Positions 23,580-52,866 of a stretch of DNA of 64,000 bases are shown here, one piece after another (the first letter of the stretch is position 1; every line of letters begins with the position of its first letter). Position numbers and translations under genes: made by a program. The notes below the pieces were generated by a model. It saw only the letters and a list, made by a program, of their open reading frames with translations, was not told where the DNA came from and did no database searches. This DNA is from Escherichia coli (GTDB taxonomy: Bacteria; Pseudomonadota; Gammaproteobacteria; Enterobacterales; Enterobacteriaceae), in NCBI RefSeq assembly GCF_009931435.1, contig NZ_CP043414.1, one strand, 5' to 3'.

Positions 23580-24095
23580 ATGTCCATCCGTTTTGCCCGC
23601 AAAGCCGACTGTGCTGCCATTGCGGAAATTTATAACCACGCCGTGTTGTATACGGCGGCTATCTGGAATGACCAAACGGTGGATGCAGATAACCGCATTG
23701 CCTGGTTTGAAGCGCGGACCATAGCAGGTTATCCGGTGCTGGTGAGTGAAGAAGATGGCGTAGTGACGGGATATGCCTCGTTTGGCGACTGGCGTAGTTT
23801 CGATGGTTTTCGCCATACCGTGGAGCATTCGGTTTATGTCCATCCTGATCATCAGGGCAAAGGTCTTGGGCGTAAATTGTTAAGCCGATTGATTGATGAA
23901 GCGCGGGATTGCGGGAAGCATGTTATGGTCGCCGGGATCGAATCGCAAAATCAGGCTTCGCTGCATCTCCACCAGTCGCTGGGATTTGTCATCACCGCAC
24001 AAATGCCGCAGGTGGGCACTAAATTTGGGCGCTGGCTGGATCTGACCTTTATGCAGTTGCAACTCGACGAACGCAGTGAACCGGACGCAATCTGA
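23580..24095 (+). CDS. mnaT: GNAT-family N-acyltransferase
   Basis: Start moved to the internal ATG at 23580 (MSIRFARKADCAAIAEIYNH...); GNAT fold; order matches K-12 yncA/mnaT. Confidence 0.8.
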   Translation: MSIRFARKADCAAIAEIYNHAVLYTAAIWNDQTVDADNRIAWFEARTIAGYPVLVSEEDGVVTGYASFGDWRSFDGFRHTVEHSVYVHPDHQGKGLGRKLLSRLIDEARDCGKHVMVAGIESQNQASLHLHQSLGFVITAQMPQVGTKFGRWLDLTFMQLQLDERSEPDAI

Positions 24096-24544
24096 TGAAT
24101 CAGTCGCTTACCCTTGCCTTTTTGATTGCCGTAGGGATTGGTCTGGTCGTCCAGAACACGCTAATGGTGCGCATCACCCAGATCTCCTCTACCATTCTCA
24201 TCGCCATGTTGCTGAACTCACTGGTAGGGATTGTGCTCTTTGTTTCTATTTTATGGTTTAAACAAGGCATGGCGGGGTTTGGCGAACTGGTGTCCAGCGT
24301 ACGCTGGTGGACACTTATACCCGGCTTGCTGGGATCTTTTTTTGTCTTCGCCAGTATCAGCGGATATCAGAATTTGGGAGCGGCGACAACTATTGCAGTA
24401 CTGGTCGCCAGCCAGCTAATTGGCGGTCTGGTGCTGGATATCTTCCGCAGTCATGGCGTACCACTACGGGCGTTGATCGGCCCAATTTGTGGCGCAATTT
24501 TACTTGTGGTTGGTGCCTGGCTGGTGGCCAGGCGCACATTTTAA
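24095..24544 (+). CDS. ydcZ: Inner-membrane protein (DMT-like)
   Basis: 149-aa hydrophobic ORF; ATG overlaps the mnaT stop. Confidence 0.8.
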   Translation: MNQSLTLAFLIAVGIGLVVQNTLMVRITQISSTILIAMLLNSLVGIVLFVSILWFKQGMAGFGELVSSVRWWTLIPGLLGSFFVFASISGYQNLGAATTIAVLVASQLIGGLVLDIFRSHGVPLRALIGPICGAILLVVGAWLVARRTF

Positions 24545-24778
24545 TCAGAGGATGGTGCCGCCTTTGGTTAACTGTTCGTGGCGCGCTTCCATATCTTCTT
24601 TATGCTTGCGACCGTGATGGGCGATCGCTGTGCGCAGACGCTGCTGCTGGGTGTAGCGATCTTCCCGACTTAACTCCGCGTCATCGCTCAGGGCGATTAA
24701 TAATTCGTTCATATGGGCAATGACGCTCTCTTCAATCGCGGCATCCACGCGCGCGATGACTTCATCCAGATGCGACAT
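24545..24778 (-). CDS. ydcY: Small protein YdcY
   Basis: 77-aa ORF; gene order. Confidence 0.75.
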   Translation of the reverse strand: MSHLDEVIARVDAAIEESVIAHMNELLIALSDDAELSREDRYTQQQRLRTAIAHHGRKHKEDMEARHEQLTKGGTIL

Positions 24779-24863
24779 ACTTTCTCCTTAGCCACTTGTG
24801 AAATTTATCGATTCATCCAAATGATATAAGTCTGCGTGGTGCCGTCAAGCCAGTGCGTAAGAT

Positions 24864-25037
24864 TTAAAACAGTGAAAACAACAGCGCCACCGGGAAACTC
24901 ATCGGCCATGTTGCCCCCACCAGAAAGGCGCTTAAGAAACGGATGCGTTTCTTATCGTGAGAAAGAAACCAGGTGATAAGAAATGCGATTGCTGCCATAA
25001 CCGCATAAAAAACAAGCATGTGTTGATAGAGAGACAT
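24864..25037 (-). CDS. ortT: Small membrane protein (orphan toxin OrtT / YdcX)
   Basis: 57-aa hydrophobic peptide MSLYQHMLVFYAVMAAIAFLITWFLSHDKKRIRFLSAFLVGATWPMSFPVALLFSLF from the internal ATG. Confidence 0.75.
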   Translation of the reverse strand: MSLYQHMLVFYAVMAAIAFLITWFLSHDKKRIRFLSAFLVGATWPMSFPVALLFSLF

Positions 25038-25230
25038 GTACGGGCGTCCAGCCAGATGAATAAAACGCGCGCAAATATGCGTCATTTTTTGACGTGCATC
25101 AAGTTTTTTCACCAGTTTGAGAAAAAATCATCAACAGCAACTTGCCCTTATCCATCTTCAGAATAAGTATTATTGCGGATTTTCTTAACCCGTACTATAC
25201 ACATAGGGGCAATGATAAAAGGTGGCAAAA

Positions 25231-25326
25231 ATGAATGTTTCCAGTAGAACTGTAGTACTGATAAATGTCTTTGCTGCTGTTGGTTTGTTTACTCTTATCT
25301 CTATGAGATTTGGCTGGTTTATTTGA
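25231..25326 (+). CDS. yncL: Small protein YncL (31 aa)
   Basis: ATG at 25231 preceded by AGGTGG; encodes MNVSSRTVVLINVFAAVGLFTLISMRFGWFI; below the ORF-track length cutoff. Confidence 0.6.
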   Translation: MNVSSRTVVLINVFAAVGLFTLISMRFGWFI

Positions 25327-25422
25327 TGTAGTGATTTTGCACGCAGCACGTACTGTCAGAGAAATCAGTGCTCTGACAGTACGCAAGATCATCTCATACT
25401 CTTACGATCTGCAATATTATCC

Positions 25423-26847
25423 TTAATGCTTAACCATGACGTGGCGGACGACGGTGTAATCCTCCAGCCCATAAAGTGACATATCCTTGCCGTAACCAGA
25501 AAGTTTCTGCCCACCGTGCGGCATTTCACTTACCAGCATGAAATGGGTATTGACCCAGGTACAACCATATTGCAGCCGTGCGCTGACACGATGCGCCCTG
25601 CCCACATCTTTAGTCCATACCGAAGATGCAAGTCCGTACTGGCTGTCATTCGCCCAGTTCACCACCTGTTCTTCATTGTCAAAGGCCGTCACGCTCACCA
25701 CCGGACCAAATACCTCTTTTTGCACGATGGCATCGTCCTGTAACGCGCCAGCCAGCAGCGTAGGCGCGTAGTAATAACCATTACCCTTGCGCTTTTCACC
25801 ACCGGTGATCACTTTGATGTGCCCTGTCTCTTTCGCCTCTTCTACCGCCTTGCTGACACGTTCGAGATGTGCCAGCGAACTTAACGGTCCAAGCTCTGTG
25901 GACTCGTCATCCGGCGCACCAGATTTTAACGTTGCCACTGCAGCACCGAGTTTTTCCACCAGCGTATCGTAAATACCTTTTTGCGCGTAGATCCGACAAG
26001 CCGCAGTACAATCCTGTCCGGCATTGTAATAGCCAAAAGTACGAACACCTTCGACCACTGCTTCAATATCAGCATCATCAAAAACAATCACTGGCGCTTT
26101 GCCACCAAGTTCCATATGAGTACGCTTAATAGACGGCGCTGTATGGCTGATGATGTGCTCGCCGGTGGCGATAGAGCCCGTCAGCGACACCATCCGCACT
26201 TTGGGATGTCCGGTCAGCGGATCGCCCACTGTTTTGCCTCTGCCAAACAGCACATTAATCACGCCAGCCGGGAAGATATCTTTCGCCAGTTCAGCCAGCT
26301 TCAACGCTGTCAGCGGCGTAATTTCTGATGGTTTAAGCACTACGCAGTTCCCTGCCGCCAGCGCCGGAGCCAGTTTCCACGCGGCCATCATCAGCGGATA
26401 ATTCCACGGTGCGATAGAAGCCACGACCCCCAACGGATCCCGACGGATCATTGAAGTATGACCTTCAAGGTATTCGCCGGCCGCCAGACCATTGAGGCAG
26501 CGCGCCGCCCCGGCGAAAAAGCGAAAGACATCGACAATCGCCGGAATTTCATCATTGAACGCACTATGCAGCGGTTTGCCACAATTACGGGACTCCAGTT
26601 CGGCAAAAACCTGACCATTTTCTTCAATAACATCGGCCAGTTTCAGCAGGCATTCCGCACGCGCTTTCGGCGTGGTTTGCCCCCATTCGGCAAATGCTGC
26701 ATCTGCCGCGCGAACAGCAGCATCCACCTGCTCTGCGGATGCCTCGGCAATCTCCAGTAAAACGTCCCCCGTTGCCGGATTATAGACAGGCTGTTTTTCC
26801 CCTTCGCCGCTAACCAGTTCTCCGTTAATCAGTAACTTATGTTGCAT
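25423..26847 (-). CDS. patD: Gamma-aminobutyraldehyde dehydrogenase
   Basis: 474-aa aldehyde dehydrogenase family protein (catalytic Cys and Glu context present); sits upstream of the ydc ABC transporter genes. Confidence 0.9.
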
Positions 26848-32499: not shown

Positions 32500-32625
<126 letters not shown>

Positions 32626-32656
32626 TGTACCCACAATAACACGAGGGGGTACAACA

Positions 32657-32827
32657 ATGAACATCGGTAAAGCAATCATCAACTACGCAGCGCGTCGCAA
32701 CATGGACATTACCTGATTGACGATGAGACCGTGGCGTTCTGGGAAGCGGATAACGATTGTGAATGGATGTTCTCCTACATGATTGGTAATGATGGTTTCC
32801 TCCACTTTAAAGGCAATGTGTATCTGC
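32657..32827 (+). pseudogene. 5' part of a small unknown gene, interrupted by the IS element and carrying an internal frame shift
   Basis: Strong SD (ACGAGGGGG) and ATG at 32657 encode MNIGKAIINYAARRNMDIT then a stop; the +2 frame continues ...LIDDETVAFWEADNDCEWMFSYMIGNDGFLHFKGNVYL up to the IS boundary. Confidence 0.5.
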
Positions 32828-32835
32828 TGTAGTGG

Positions 32836-33656
<821 letters not shown>

Positions 33657-33700
33657 GTTGCATACAACGGCAACAGGAAACCGCGCCCTGAGTTTCTCAA

Positions 33701-34012
<312 letters not shown>

Positions 34013-34078
34013 AATGTCACCTGTTTTTGACTATGAGGCGATGATATCACCTCTATTCAGGTGGCCAAATTCAGTGTG

Positions 34079-34265
34079 CCACTACAGTATGGCTAAGATG
34101 GAATCAGAGATTAAATCACTTAAAGCTGATAACGCCGCATTACGAAAGAGTTTAAAACTGATTGATGAGACTAATGCGGTTATGATGGATCATGTATTCC
34201 CTGAGTGGCGAAATGAAACTAAACCTACACAATATAAGAAACCTACACTTCGAGTGGTTGCATAA
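34079..34265 (+). pseudogene. 3' part of the IS-interrupted small gene (coiled-coil tail)
   Basis: The frame continues across the IS: ...GNVYL | RMAKMESEIKSLKADNAALRKSLKLIDETNAVMMDHVFPEWRNETKPTQYKKPTLRVVA*. Confidence 0.45.
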
Positions 34266-34365
34266 AAAAAGGGACTCCGAAGAGTCCCTAGTAAGTTTAG
34301 GTTAGGTTTGCACAACAAAGATGAGGTTATAATGAACATAATGCTACATTATTCTTTAAAGCCAG

Positions 34366-34390
34366 AAAAATAACCGCCCCGAAGGGCGGG
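34366..34390 (-). terminator. Rho-independent terminator-like hairpin (ccgccccgaagggcgg) with a T-run on the minus strand
   Basis: GC stem plus ttatttttct on the minus strand, downstream of the minus-strand small ORFs. Confidence 0.5.
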
Positions 34391-34547
34391 AGGATTAATA
34401 CTCAATCTATACTTGTTATGTTTTTATGTTGTATAGATCACTGACTATGAAAACACTGTACTGGAGTGTGTTTTATGGCTTTTAATCGGGAATCCTCAAA
34501 GAAGATCCCCTGTTAATAACCATAAGGAGAAAAGGCAGATTACACTA

Positions 34548-34721
34548 TTATTTAGCATCCTTTTTACAGCAACTAAAAAGAATAAACAGGATTAAACATC
34601 CCCAGCCGTAAGGTGTACCAATTAGAAATTTGAAAAACACCACCATCGATATAAAAATCAATTTAATGCCAGCGACGATAGTCAAAAACAGCAGAGTAGC
34701 AAAGTAGACAAAAAGATCCAT
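34548..34721 (-). CDS. Small hydrophobic membrane peptide (57 aa)
   Basis: ATG with GAGG 9 nt upstream; MDLFVYFATLLFLTIVAGIKLIFISMVVFFKFLIGTPYGWGCLILFILFSCCKKDAK; below the ORF-track cutoff. Confidence 0.4.
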   Translation of the reverse strand: MDLFVYFATLLFLTIVAGIKLIFISMVVFFKFLIGTPYGWGCLILFILFSCCKKDAK

Positions 34722-34770
34722 AGATAATCCTCTTTGAAAACGACCATCATCTATAGTTCAATTCATCGAT

Positions 34771-34953
34771 TTAATTAATGATACTTGAAAGCGTTACACA
34801 CAGCAGAAATGCCAATATGTGCCATGAATATACGATAGTTAATCCTACAGTAAGACAAATCAAAAATTCAACCATAGGTAAATCCTCAAATAAGAAAAAG
34901 GTTAGCGGGGGGTGATTCCCCCCGTAGACGTTGACCAGCTCAACATCTTTCAT
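34771..34953 (-). CDS. Small hydrophobic peptide (60 aa; internal start would give 34 aa: MVEFLICLTVGLTIVYSWHILAFLLCVTLSSIIN)
   Basis: ORF with a hydrophobic C-terminal segment; the internal ATG has GAGGA upstream. Confidence 0.35.
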   Translation of the reverse strand: MKDVELVNVYGGNHPPLTFFLFEDLPMVEFLICLTVGLTIVYSWHILAFLLCVTLSSIIN

Positions 34954-34973
34954 ACATTTATTTATAACGCGTT

Positions 34974-35540
34974 TTAAGACACATCAAATTCATCGTCTTC
35001 TTCTGGTTCTTGTTCCGGTTCATCCATTAATGGTAATTCTTCTTCCTCGTCTTCTCCCAAATCAGCATTTTCGAACAAGTCCCCTACTTCATTTAAACGA
35101 AGCTCGATGATCTCCCTTAGCTTATTCTTCAATGTTTTCTGATCAGTGGCGGATTCTAAAATTTCTAGGGCATCGATTGTGGCGATCTGCAAGATAGTCT
35201 GCTTCACCTTCCCACAATATTCAGCTAGTTCCTGTTCTACATACCCGACCGGAATCAGGAGATTCATTGCTTCCTGGTTCTCTCGTTCGGCTGCATCTGC
35301 TAATGCTCTCTCACGGCGTAATTTCTCTACGTCGATTTGTTCCTTGATAGAAGTTTCTTTAAGCGGGTTAATGATGTTCTTCAAGACCCAATCACACCCA
35401 GGCTTCGCCGGGACACGTCTTGTATTTGTGTTATAAGGTAGACCCCTTTCTAACCATTTCTTAGCGGCGTTAATTGTATAGCCGTATAAGCGGGAAATTT
35501 CTGTAAGGGTTAATTCTTCTTTCATCCGGTTATCCTCCAT
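34974..35540 (-). CDS. Phage terminase small-subunit (lambda Nu1)-like HTH protein with acidic C-terminal tail
   Basis: 188 aa; N-terminal HTH-like LTLTEISRLYGYTINAAKKWLERGLPY, central EKLRRE coiled-coil segment, C-terminal DEEEELPLMDEPEQEPEEDDEFDVS; resembles the Nu1/TerS layout. Confidence 0.6.
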   Translation of the reverse strand: MEDNRMKEELTLTEISRLYGYTINAAKKWLERGLPYNTNTRRVPAKPGCDWVLKNIINPLKETSIKEQIDVEKLRRERALADAAERENQEAMNLLIPVGYVEQELAEYCGKVKQTILQIATIDALEILESATDQKTLKNKLREIIELRLNEVGDLFENADLGEDEEEELPLMDEPEQEPEEDDEFDVS

Positions 35541-35886
35541 TAAATTTGCGTAAAATTATTTATCTGATCTACGCATTCAGGAGAGCGCCTAAAACGCTTT
35601 CTAACGACATGAAAGATCTAGGCGTGGAAAGGAATTGGCGGGTGTTAATAGTCGCGTAGCGACCGCGCTGGTGGGCTGCACTGCACCTGTTTTGAAATCT
35701 CACACGCACATCAAATACCGGGGTGCCGAAAACTCCCTTTATTTCATCCGCGGAACAGTACCTTTTTAATTTGTCAAGCATTAATTTCTTAATTTAATTA
35801 CTAAATCTCACCCCAATAATTGAAAAAATATCAAAAATCAATAAAGTAAGCATCTAAAAGTCAGTCCATACCAAAAGAGGTATAAA

Positions 35887-36666
35887 ATGAAAAACATTAT
35901 CGCTGCTATCGTGCTTTCTGCTACTGCTTTCGGTGCTGATGCTGCGTCCTTTGATTGCACTAAGGCTATAACCAAATCAGAGAAGTTTATTTGTGCTAAT
36001 GAGTCAATCTCCGCACTGGATTCTAAACTTCATGAAGTATATGTTAAGGCTGTTAAGATTGATCCGTCTCTTAAACAAGAGCAACGCAACTGGAATAAAA
36101 CTGTTCGTGATACAATGATCAATATCGGGCAGATTCAGCCACTGGAGGCTGTATACAACGCTCAAATCCAAAACTTGATGAATGTATTATCTAAAGAAGA
36201 AACCGCGTCAGAGAGCGTTACAGATGATTCTGCAAAGGTTGAAGAAGAACAACCGAAACAGGAAGAAGTAAAGAAACTGAATGTTACCGCGATTTACGCA
36301 TGTACTGCAAAATTTACATGGAAAGTTATCGATGGTGAGGAAACAGAAGCTGTAAAAGATTACTTATACGGAAACAAAGATCATGATGATAAAGGCGGTA
36401 AACTTAAAATCAAACTGGTAGATGATGTTCCTGTGTATTTTGTTTACACCGACAAATATAACGTTTATAAATCACCACTCAAACCAGCTAAAGAAAATCC
36501 AAACGCAATGGAGGGTAAATCCAAACAGGATACTATTGGACGTGTTAACACTTATAACATCTGGGTAAGCAAAAAAGGTGACATGCGTCTTGAAGTTATT
36601 GAACCAAAATATGATTCTGAATATAAACACACTCAATTTGCATGTGACATGGTAGACGCAGAGTAA
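35887..36666 (+). CDS. Secreted protein with N-terminal DUF1311 (LprI-like) domain and unknown C-terminal domain
   Basis: Signal peptide MKNIIAAIVLSATAFGADA; FDCTKAITKSEKFICANESISALDSKLHEVY matches the DUF1311 N-terminal pattern; AT-rich. Confidence 0.65.
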   Translation: MKNIIAAIVLSATAFGADAASFDCTKAITKSEKFICANESISALDSKLHEVYVKAVKIDPSLKQEQRNWNKTVRDTMINIGQIQPLEAVYNAQIQNLMNVLSKEETASESVTDDSAKVEEEQPKQEEVKKLNVTAIYACTAKFTWKVIDGEETEAVKDYLYGNKDHDDKGGKLKIKLVDDVPVYFVYTDKYNVYKSPLKPAKENPNAMEGKSKQDTIGRVNTYNIWVSKKGDMRLEVIEPKYDSEYKHTQFACDMVDAE

Positions 36667-36925
36667 GAGGTGAAATGATGCAATTCAATAGCATGAAGAT
36701 TACTCAAAAATGGTGGGATGCGATGAAAGCTAACCACCAGAACGATATTAATTAAGTAACATTTTAGATATACAGCACCCAGCTAACAGATCACCTTTTA
36801 TGGATTTCATTATAACCCCTTTGATCTGGAAACTATGTTAATTAGTTGATTTCTAAGCCTTGTCCTTGTGATGGGGCTTTTTATTGCAAAATTTTTAGTT
36901 ATTTTGGGTTGACTACATTCGGGTT

Positions 36926-37046
36926 GCCAATTCGCCTGGCTAACTCTTGCTGAGTGATTTCTGACTGTAAAAAAGCATTTAACAGCAATACCTTAGAGGC
37001 GACGCTCAAAGGCACTTCAATAAAGTGATCGTGACTATTTAATGGC
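36926..37046 (-). pseudogene. hicB: hicB antitoxin internal fragment (about codons 59-98)
   Basis: Reverse translation NSHDHFIEVPLSVASKVLLLNAFLQSEITQQELARRIG, then divergence (NPNVVNPK*); stop codons upstream, no N-terminal region. Confidence 0.65.
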
Positions 37047-37226
37047 GAAGTTTACCTCCGTGTGTAATGTGCTCGAAAATAGCACTAAATCGCCGCAACG
37101 GCAGAATGCAATGCAAAATCAGGAAGGAAGATTCCAGAATTTCTTTGCGCTAATTTGCAAAACTGAATAATAACCTCAAGAAACGATCGGCATCATAGCG
37201 GCAAAAGGTCAGAAAAAGGTGGCGGG

Positions 37227-52073: not shown

Positions 52074-52374
52074 TACCGTTGTCTCTCTTCCAGGTTTACT
52101 CCTGATAGAAAGTCATCGGCATTTGACGGTAATTACTTACGACTAAAAACCTCTTTGCGTCACATTTTTACAACAATTATTGCAGAGAAGATTAATGCCA
52201 TTGGATTGAAGAAAGTGAGGAATGGTTAAACTGGCTAACCCGAATGACGAAAAATTCTGGAAAACAGCACGCAATTTCGTCAGGTGATTATTTTCGTCCC
52301 TAAGGAAACCACATAGGATGCTCACGGGTGCCTGAGACTTTCTGTTTTCAGGCTAACCGGGAATCAGAAAGACG

Positions 52375-52413
52375 AAGGCCCCGACCGATATTTCTATCAA
52401 CCGAGGCCAACGA

Positions 52414-52440
<27 letters not shown>
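52375..52440 (-). ncRNA. sokB: Putative sokB antisense RNA of the hokB locus (approximate position)
   Basis: Placed only by analogy with hok/sok architecture (antisense over the mok start region); boundaries not determined from sequence. Confidence 0.3.
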
Positions 52441-52621
<181 letters not shown>

Positions 52622-52692
52622 GGGCAAGCGCGGGGATTTTCCCCGCGCATCTGACTAGCGGATTCAGTTTCTCATGGCACCCCTTTTACACT

Positions 52693-52866
52693 TCAGTTAG
52701 TGCATGTTTTTTTCGATGCACTAATAGAACCATCATTACAGACAAATTTGCCGCCTGCCGTACAGTGTGAGATCCCCCCTTTCGAACCAGAACAGGGTTT
52801 GCGCCCGGCATCGGCATAAAAGGAAACAAGCGCTCCCATAACCAAGATAAGTGCCAATTTTTTCAT
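52693..52866 (-). CDS. ydcA: Small secreted protein YdcA (57 aa)
   Basis: GGAGG RBS; MKKLALILVMGALVSFYADAGRKPCSGSKGGISHCTAGGKFVCNDGSISASKKTCTN; below the ORF-track cutoff. Confidence 0.7.
   Translation of the reverse strand: MKKLALILVMGALVSFYADAGRKPCSGSKGGISHCTAGGKFVCNDGSISASKKTCTN

Follow-up and report, generated by a model that had tools for sequence, protein, structure and literature searches.

ortT and yncL: a divergent pair of small membrane-protein genes in the Escherichia coli core chromosome, hidden or mis-started in a length-limited list of open reading frames

The locus and its setting

The window analysed here, a stretch of 64,000 nucleotides of Escherichia coli DNA, contains at positions 24864-25326 an interval that runs exactly from the stop codon of one small gene, ortT, through the stop codon of another, yncL. 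These genes and their neighbours are arranged as follows.

24095..24544, plus strand: ydcZ, from local gene order
24545..24778, minus strand: ydcY, from local gene order
24864..25037, minus strand: ortT (ydcX), 57 aa plus stop (MSLYQ...FSLF), orphan membrane toxin of the GhoT/OrtT family (open reading frame, PF10753, RefSeq)
25231..25326, plus strand: yncL, 31 aa plus stop (MNVSSRTVVLINVFAAVGLFTLISMRFGWFI), single-helix stress-response membrane protein (NF000537, RefSeq)
25423..26847, minus strand: patD, from local gene order

The order ydcZ-ydcY-ortT-yncL-patD matches that of K-12, and the region is a standard part of E. coli genomes. A 651-nt query spanning positions 24780-25430 returned 5416 matching records, and of 5426 complete E. 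coli genomes, 5405 matched over at least 80% of its length, with identities of 95-100%. The same segment is identical in DNA sequence (100%) to strain 2020CK-00188, where RefSeq names ortT, yncL and patD beneath the match; over tens of kilobases, the identity of the window is 99.2% to this strain and ~96% to K-12 MG1655. RefSeq annotates both ortT and yncL at these positions in 2020CK-00188 and in K-12, and the preliminary description, which had proposed a 57-aa OrtT and a 31-aa YncL frame and suggested comparison with curated annotation, gave coordinates that are exact and agree with the RefSeq names, the family models and the conservation across genera. The term "cluster" that it applied to these tiny genes does not fit, as ortT and yncL form a divergent pair instead. 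We are all but certain that two small genes of the E. coli core chromosome lie in this interval, independent of each other and transcribed divergently. Both are already known, being annotated in RefSeq and each having been studied experimentally.

Conservation of the ortT frame

OrtT matches the Pfam family PF10753 (Toxin_GhoT_OrtT) over the entire profile (positions 1-55 of 55, E = 8.3e-28, 96.9 bits, gathering score 22.1), and the protein encoded in the window is 100% identical to K-12 OrtT (b1445). One genome per species was scanned for relatives, which gave 80 loci in more than 15 genera, including Escherichia, Citrobacter, Salmonella, Enterobacter, Kosakonia, Lelliottia, Leclercia, Phytobacter, Pantoea, Mixta, Cedecea, Buttiauxella and others. 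All 80 loci have the ATG, 57 codons and the same stop, and in comparison with the window the median synonymous divergence (pS) is 0.78 per site, which is saturated, against a median non-synonymous divergence (pN) of 0.14. The substitution pattern indicates that the ortT frame is under purifying selection, with its start and length fixed across genera.

The hydrophobic helix claimed for each protein in the preliminary description was borne out, with best 17-residue Kyte-Doolittle windows of 2.33 in OrtT and 2.42 in YncL. The maximum in OrtT falls at residues 8-24, and 27 aligned homologues have in common an invariant G-x-T-W-P-x-S-x-P-V-A-L in the second helix, along with a conserved basic loop (HDKKRIR). 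AlphaFold, run on the same 27-homologue alignment, places helices at residues 3-27 and 29-56 with moderate confidence (mean pLDDT 73), and OrtT is thus predicted to consist of two transmembrane helices joined by the basic loop SHDKKRIR, a topology that the model and the alignment suggest. A length of ~57 residues, two hydrophobic helices and a short basic loop are the traits of the GhoT/OrtT family, and OrtT has them. PADLOC defence models gave no match to OrtT, YncL or YdcY.

Conservation of the yncL frame

YncL matches the NCBIfam equivalog NF000537 over positions 1-30 of 30 with 72.5 bits (cut-off 35; E = 1.8e-20). Among the 80 ortT loci, 25 carry yncL, and these belong to Escherichia, Citrobacter, Salmonella and Intestinirhabdus, with the addition of a 47%-identical copy in Pluralibacter. 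In all 25 loci the gene is divergent from ortT, with ~190-200 nt between the start codons (193 nt here), and it sits between patD and ortT. Its length is exactly 31 codons in 24 of the 25 orthologues, the frame retains M[ND]VSS[RK]TV..LIN...RFGW, and pS ranges from 0.05 to 0.67 compared with 0.01 to 0.16 for pN, a pattern that indicates purifying selection on the yncL frame across genera. Residue 13 is V in the window, F in K-12, and L or I in other orthologues. An exhaustive search of 1.84 billion representative proteins recovered just nine clusters, all of them close relatives, and YncL is therefore a narrow enterobacterial family.

Where the preliminary description had named a lack of ribosome occupancy and of conservation as the finding that would speak against these frames, we find strong conservation, and yncL appears in a K-12 ribosome-profiling table, where, among the rows listed, it counts as one of the "previously known sORFs" and has separate read columns; ortT was not found among the rows listed of the same table. 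The text of the Weaver preprint and a paper on small proteins in magnesium starvation name neither ortT nor yncL.

Longer frames at the locus are artefacts of the list

The preliminary description had noted that the two genes are missing or mis-started in the track of open reading frames, and that an antisense frame of 65 aa is shown over yncL. Both statements hold for the mechanical list, in which the following features occur.

24864..25112, minus strand: 82-aa GTG-started frame replacing ortT
25038..25112, minus strand: in-frame run upstream of ortT that produces the 82-aa frame, non-coding, containing the ortT 5' UTR and putative promoter (non-conserved translation, no Shine-Dalgarno sequence)
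25222..25326, plus strand: 34-aa GTG-started frame for yncL, under the 60-aa cut-off of the list
25195..25392, minus strand: 65-aa frame antisense to yncL, an artefact (no family match, weak Shine-Dalgarno sequence, interrupted in relatives)

One might read the longer frames as the real genes, with OrtT being a protein of 82 aa from the GTG at 25112 and/or the frame at 25195..25392 being a gene opposite yncL. Both frames are open in the window, and many automatic calls in public data put OrtT homologues at 73-97 aa. However, the open run upstream of the ortT ATG varies from 0 to 64 codons across the 80 loci, its translation is not conserved, and no Shine-Dalgarno sequence precedes the GTG at 25112 on the minus strand (duplex +0.6 kcal/mol), whereas the ATG and the 57 codons are unchanged in every one of these loci. 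The antisense frame fares no better: of 24 orthologous loci, 17 interrupt it with stop codons and none has an ATG where it would start, there is no match in Pfam or NCBIfam, its Shine-Dalgarno duplex is -2.4 kcal/mol, and with a best Kyte-Doolittle window of just 1.24 it is not hydrophobic. We give this reading practically no credence. The false start of the 34-aa frame is the GTG at 25222-25224, which lies inside the Shine-Dalgarno sequence of yncL. The length cut-off and the rule "first start codon after a stop" produce the 82-aa, the 34-aa and the antisense 65-aa frames as artefacts.

The same kinds of error are found elsewhere. Many automatic gene calls in public protein sets place OrtT homologues at 63-97 aa and not at 57, and the upstream mis-start of OrtT is therefore widespread in such sets. 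[quoted passage not shown]

Translation and transcription signals

The preliminary description assigned a Shine-Dalgarno sequence and ATG to each gene. For yncL this stands, whereas the signal of ortT is weak or marginal and close to background. The signals, together with promoter-like blocks from an alignment of 12 intergenic sequences from six genera and a hairpin between yncL and patD, are listed below.

25047..25050, minus strand: weak Shine-Dalgarno-like TGGA, 9 nt ahead of the ortT ATG (duplex with the 16S 3' end, -3.3 kcal/mol)
25074..25102, minus strand: promoter-like block of ortT, with TTGATG (25102-25097), a 17-nt spacer and CATATT (25079-25074), followed by a GC-rich GCGCGCG (alignment)
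25173..25201, plus strand: promoter-like block of yncL, with TTGCGG (25173-25178), a 17-nt spacer and C-TATACA (25195-25201) (alignment)
25219..25225, plus strand: yncL Shine-Dalgarno sequence AAGGTGG, 5 nt ahead of the ATG (anti-Shine-Dalgarno duplex, -7.2 kcal/mol)
25331..25392, no strand assigned: hairpin with an inner stem 25350-25361 / 25371-25382 (12 bp, perfect, 9-nt loop) and an outer stem 25331-25340 / 25383-25392 (fold)

The yncL Shine-Dalgarno sequence is among roughly the strongest 5% for the ATGs of the window; its core GGTGG is kept in 24 of the 25 orthologous loci, and the full AAGGTGG in most of them. The ortT value compares with a median of -2.4 kcal/mol for background ATGs in the window, and a GGA or GGT at a similar distance ahead of ortT recurs in other genera. 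To place the combination of helix and Shine-Dalgarno sequence against chance, all ATG-started frames of 25-60 aa in the window may be considered (n = 527). Only three have both such a hydrophobic helix and a Shine-Dalgarno duplex of -7 kcal/mol or lower, namely yncL, hokB and an in-frame internal Met near the end of ydcU, and the signal exceeds chance.

Within the 12-sequence alignment, the elements CTTGAT, GTCA and GCATA of the ortT block are invariant or nearly so, and TATTGCGG and CGTACTATAC of the yncL block are conserved in Escherichia, Citrobacter, Salmonella and Intestinirhabdus. We infer from this conservation that the two blocks are the promoters of ortT and yncL; a simple consensus promoter scan between the two genes flagged neither of them. 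A -10 element with C at position -13 is typical of sigma-S promoters. The yncL block has such an element, which fits the published sigma-S dependence of yncL expression in Salmonella, where the gene was first catalogued as the sRNA STnc1110 (PMC5437024).

The hairpin has a folding energy of -31.3 kcal/mol (z = -4.5), and none of 200 shuffled sequences was equally stable. A comparably strong hairpin is present at the same position in 24 of the 25 yncL loci, with the sequence CTGTCAGAG in Escherichia, GGCAGAGAG in Citrobacter and GGCGGGGAGG in Salmonella, and compensatory double changes occur in four of ten consensus pairs. It is not followed by a U-run in E. coli and is therefore not a canonical intrinsic terminator. 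Its position and conservation suggest that it is likely to be a shared terminator or 3'-end stabiliser for the convergent genes yncL and patD. The pair patD-yncL has been listed among candidate "excludon" pairs with overlapping transcription (PMC12288877).

Taken together, yncL would form its own transcription unit of ~185 nt, with a sigma-S-type promoter, a strong Shine-Dalgarno sequence, 31 codons and the hairpin.

Function of yncL

The short unit with its strong, conserved terminal hairpin raises the question of whether yncL acts mainly as a small regulatory or dual-function RNA, a transcript of ~185 nt that base-pairs and in which the reading frame is incidental. The history of the gene lends itself to this interpretation, since the Salmonella orthologue was at first listed as an sRNA and its tagged protein was not detected there (PMC5437024), and RNA-RNA interactome data repeatedly contain the transcript, paired with RprA in two methods and with KilS in RIL-seq. 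In those data, however, yncL has the role of a target mRNA and not of a regulator. NCBIfam classes YncL as a protein equivalog, and its expression yields an active protein (PMC12542507, PMC10470546). Because selection acts at the level of codons (31 codons in 24 of 25 loci, with pS well over pN), because the strong Shine-Dalgarno sequence is conserved, and because translational lacZ fusions of yncL are expressed in Salmonella (PMC5437024), a purely regulatory RNA is unlikely, and we consider it very improbable that regulation by base-pairing is the main role of yncL.

The product of yncL is a 31-residue single-helix inner-membrane protein. YncL is made and located in the inner membrane according to PMC12542507, which cites Hemm 2008 and 2010, and it is cleaved in vivo by RseP (PMC10470546). 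Minimal medium and heat shock both raise its expression; when overproduced, it partly depolarises the membrane, makes the nucleoid condense and renders cells sensitive to pore-forming peptides (PMC12542507).

OrtT as an orphan toxin

K-12 OrtT was described as an orphan toxin by Islam, Benedik and Wood in 2015 (PMC4344625). Its production is toxic, with lysis, membrane damage and a 27-fold decrease in ATP, and it slows growth in antifolate-induced stringent conditions; an ATG-to-ACG mutant of ortT was built, and the authors concluded that the toxin is the protein and not the RNA (PMC4344625). Induction of ortT was measured with trimethoprim, RelA, mupirocin, serine hydroxamate and heat (Islam 2015, PMC4344625). 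The toxic phenotype of OrtT and the depolarising phenotype of YncL both come from plasmid overexpression (PMC4344625, PMC12542507). OrtT, once made, damages the inner membrane, causes the proton-motive force and the ATP pool to collapse, and slows growth.

The toxin was neutralised by neither YdcY, GhoS, flanking RNA nor any clone of a genomic library, and cloning of both flanks of ortT left the toxicity unreduced (PMC4344625). At the sequence level, a tblastn search with K-12 GhoS gave a best E value of 1.4 in the window, and in the 80 ortT loci nothing reached E <= 1e-3. As there is no adjacent ghoS, the locus is of the orphan OrtT type and not a GhoTS system, and this absence agrees with the published orphan status of OrtT. 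YdcY was considered as a conserved partner of OrtT and rejected: ydcY adjoins ortT only in Escherichia among the 80 loci, and experimentally it is not an antitoxin (PMC4344625). No Rfam family gave a match near ortT. A candidate antisense-RNA terminator against the ortT leader at 25065-25092 on the plus strand was set aside, as it consists of a 5-bp stem and a T-run and lies within chance; three such terminator-like elements were found in the region against 0.9 +/- 0.9 expected, and the match at 25065-25082 overlaps the conserved -10 block of ortT.

OrtT would act without a cognate antitoxin, and low expression probably restrains its activity, through a promoter that responds to stress and a ribosome-binding site that is weak. 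The weak site in the window, with only a GGA or GGT remnant kept elsewhere, would suit a toxin that lacks an antitoxin and is controlled through low translation.

The conserved arrangement of the two genes invites a different interpretation, in which ortT and yncL are a functional pair for membrane depolarisation and YncL is a modulator or antitoxin that tunes or gates OrtT, so that OrtT would not truly be an orphan. The back-to-back layout with ~190-200 nt of intergenic DNA recurs in Escherichia, Citrobacter, Salmonella, Intestinirhabdus and Pluralibacter, the intergenic control region is conserved, and both proteins affect membrane potential (PMC4344625, PMC12542507). Moreover, the "UTR" construct of Islam 2015 begins inside yncL (primer UTR-F) and thus did not contain an intact yncL (PMC4344625). 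Weighing against this are the 55 of 80 species that have ortT without yncL, in whose loci no substitute small hydrophobic divergent frame was found, as well as the genomic-library screen, which gave no antitoxin for OrtT (PMC4344625), and the effect of YncL itself, which is depolarising and not protective (PMC12542507). Also against it stands a natural disruption of yncL in E. coli strain QDFD216 (NZ_CP053211.1, locus positions 801-1625): an IS1 element has entered the gene near its 5' end, a remnant annotated at 25 aa is left, and ortT is intact ~240 nt away. If it were true, the pairing would require the concept of OrtT as an orphan toxin to be revised; on the present evidence we regard it as improbable, and independent genes remain the preferred account of the locus.

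A separate observation concerns the genera that have ortT and lack yncL. In Enterobacter, Kosakonia, Lelliottia and others (locus positions ~1330-2500), the end of patD is ~1.1-1.7 kb upstream of ortT, compared with ~390 nt in Escherichia, and this larger gap in many of the genera without yncL implies that another gene is in its place.

Other small genes and a mobile island in the window

The preliminary description had counted hokB/mokB and ydcA as further genes of the window coding for fewer than 60 aa, and all three are present.

52414..52581, plus strand: mokB, 55 aa, leader frame overlapping hokB (open reading frame; annotated in K-12, absent from PGAP in the nearest strain)
52472..52621, plus strand: hokB, 49 aa, type I toxin (open reading frame, RefSeq; Shine-Dalgarno duplex -8.5 kcal/mol, 17-residue Kyte-Doolittle value 3.01)
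52693..52866, minus strand: ydcA, 57 aa, N terminus resembling a signal peptide (open reading frame; annotated in K-12; Shine-Dalgarno duplex -10.0 kcal/mol)

In the gap between ydcA and hokB lies the position of yncP (K-12 b4774, 22 aa; 52599-52667, minus strand), where the start ATG has become CTG in the window and two amino acids are changed; at this position PGAP annotates a 22-aa hypothetical protein in the nearest strain. The Rfam family "sok" (RF01794) matches 52326-52477 on the plus strand, the strand of hokB and mokB, and sokB of K-12 is annotated opposite hokB. The match seems to cover the sense strand of the hok mRNA leader and not the antisense RNA.

At ~32500-37050, the window carries a strain-specific insertion of ~4.4 kb that is not in K-12; it splits hicB, and hicA is lost. 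Its genes include a frameshifted IS3 transposase, a lysozyme-inhibitor gene of the LprI family and a 188-aa frame at 34974..35540 on the minus strand that resembles a terminase small subunit (phrog_57, E = 4e-13). A 1.2-kb core of the island occurs in just 63 of 5426 E. coli genomes, with one copy at a prophage end near tRNA-Ser. The screen that recovered yncL and hokB also found in this island an unannotated, very hydrophobic frame of 57 aa at 34548..34721 on the minus strand (MDLFVYFATLLFLTIVAGIKLIF...CCKKDAK; Shine-Dalgarno duplex -5.8 kcal/mol). This putative frame has no match in Pfam or PHROG. It is also 57 aa long in strain EC05, with four synonymous and five non-synonymous codon differences, and there are six close protein clusters restricted to E. 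coli, some of them named "putative membrane protein". A 60-aa frame at 34771..34953 on the minus strand, with an N terminus of the form "ELxxVxGG", was considered as a double-glycine microcin leader and discarded, since the 92%-identical island of EC05 does not preserve it and it has no family match.

Significance

As a discovery the locus has little value, because the curated K-12 annotation and the automatic annotation of NCBI already include the two genes, and each has dedicated experimental papers. Its worth is methodological. The interval is a clean positive control in which a track of open reading frames that applies a 60-aa limit and takes the first start codon hides or mis-starts genes for small membrane proteins and displays a spurious antisense frame, and in which the true frames can be told from the artefacts by a start, length and stop that stay constant across genera.

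Comparison with known systems

YncL resembles two other short single-helix peptides in behaviour, with no sequence relationship to either. YohP lowers the membrane potential and behaves like YncL (2025 study, PMC12542507), and HokB is a depolarising peptide that is, like YncL, an in vivo substrate of RseP (PMC10470546). Their control differs in that hokB is under the antisense RNA sokB and the mokB leader, whereas no antisense partner is known or was found for yncL or ortT.

The closest counterpart of OrtT from a complete toxin-antitoxin system is its paralogue GhoT, of the type V system GhoT/GhoS, which is also a member of PF10753 with 57 aa and is 63% identical to OrtT in an ungapped alignment; the two proteins have in common the C-terminal segment LSAFLVGxTWPMSxPVALLFSLF. 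In the GhoT/GhoS system, the adjacent ghoS, encoding an antitoxin that is an mRNA endoribonuclease, lies upstream of the toxin gene, whereas ortT has the divergent yncL in this place. In published tests GhoS does not neutralise OrtT (PMC4344625).

The direct counterparts are orthologues in the same setting. The Salmonella orthologue of YncL (STnc1110 / STM14_1932) has 31 aa, the same position between patD and ortT, and the same Shine-Dalgarno sequence. K-12 YncL (b4598) shares the NCBIfam equivalog match, the length of 31 aa, the position between patD and ortT and the Shine-Dalgarno sequence, and differs by F13V. K-12 OrtT has an identical 57-aa sequence and identical neighbours (patD, yncL, ortT, ydcY, ydcZ), and the difference between the two ortT loci lies only in the surrounding DNA (~96% identical) and not in the protein.
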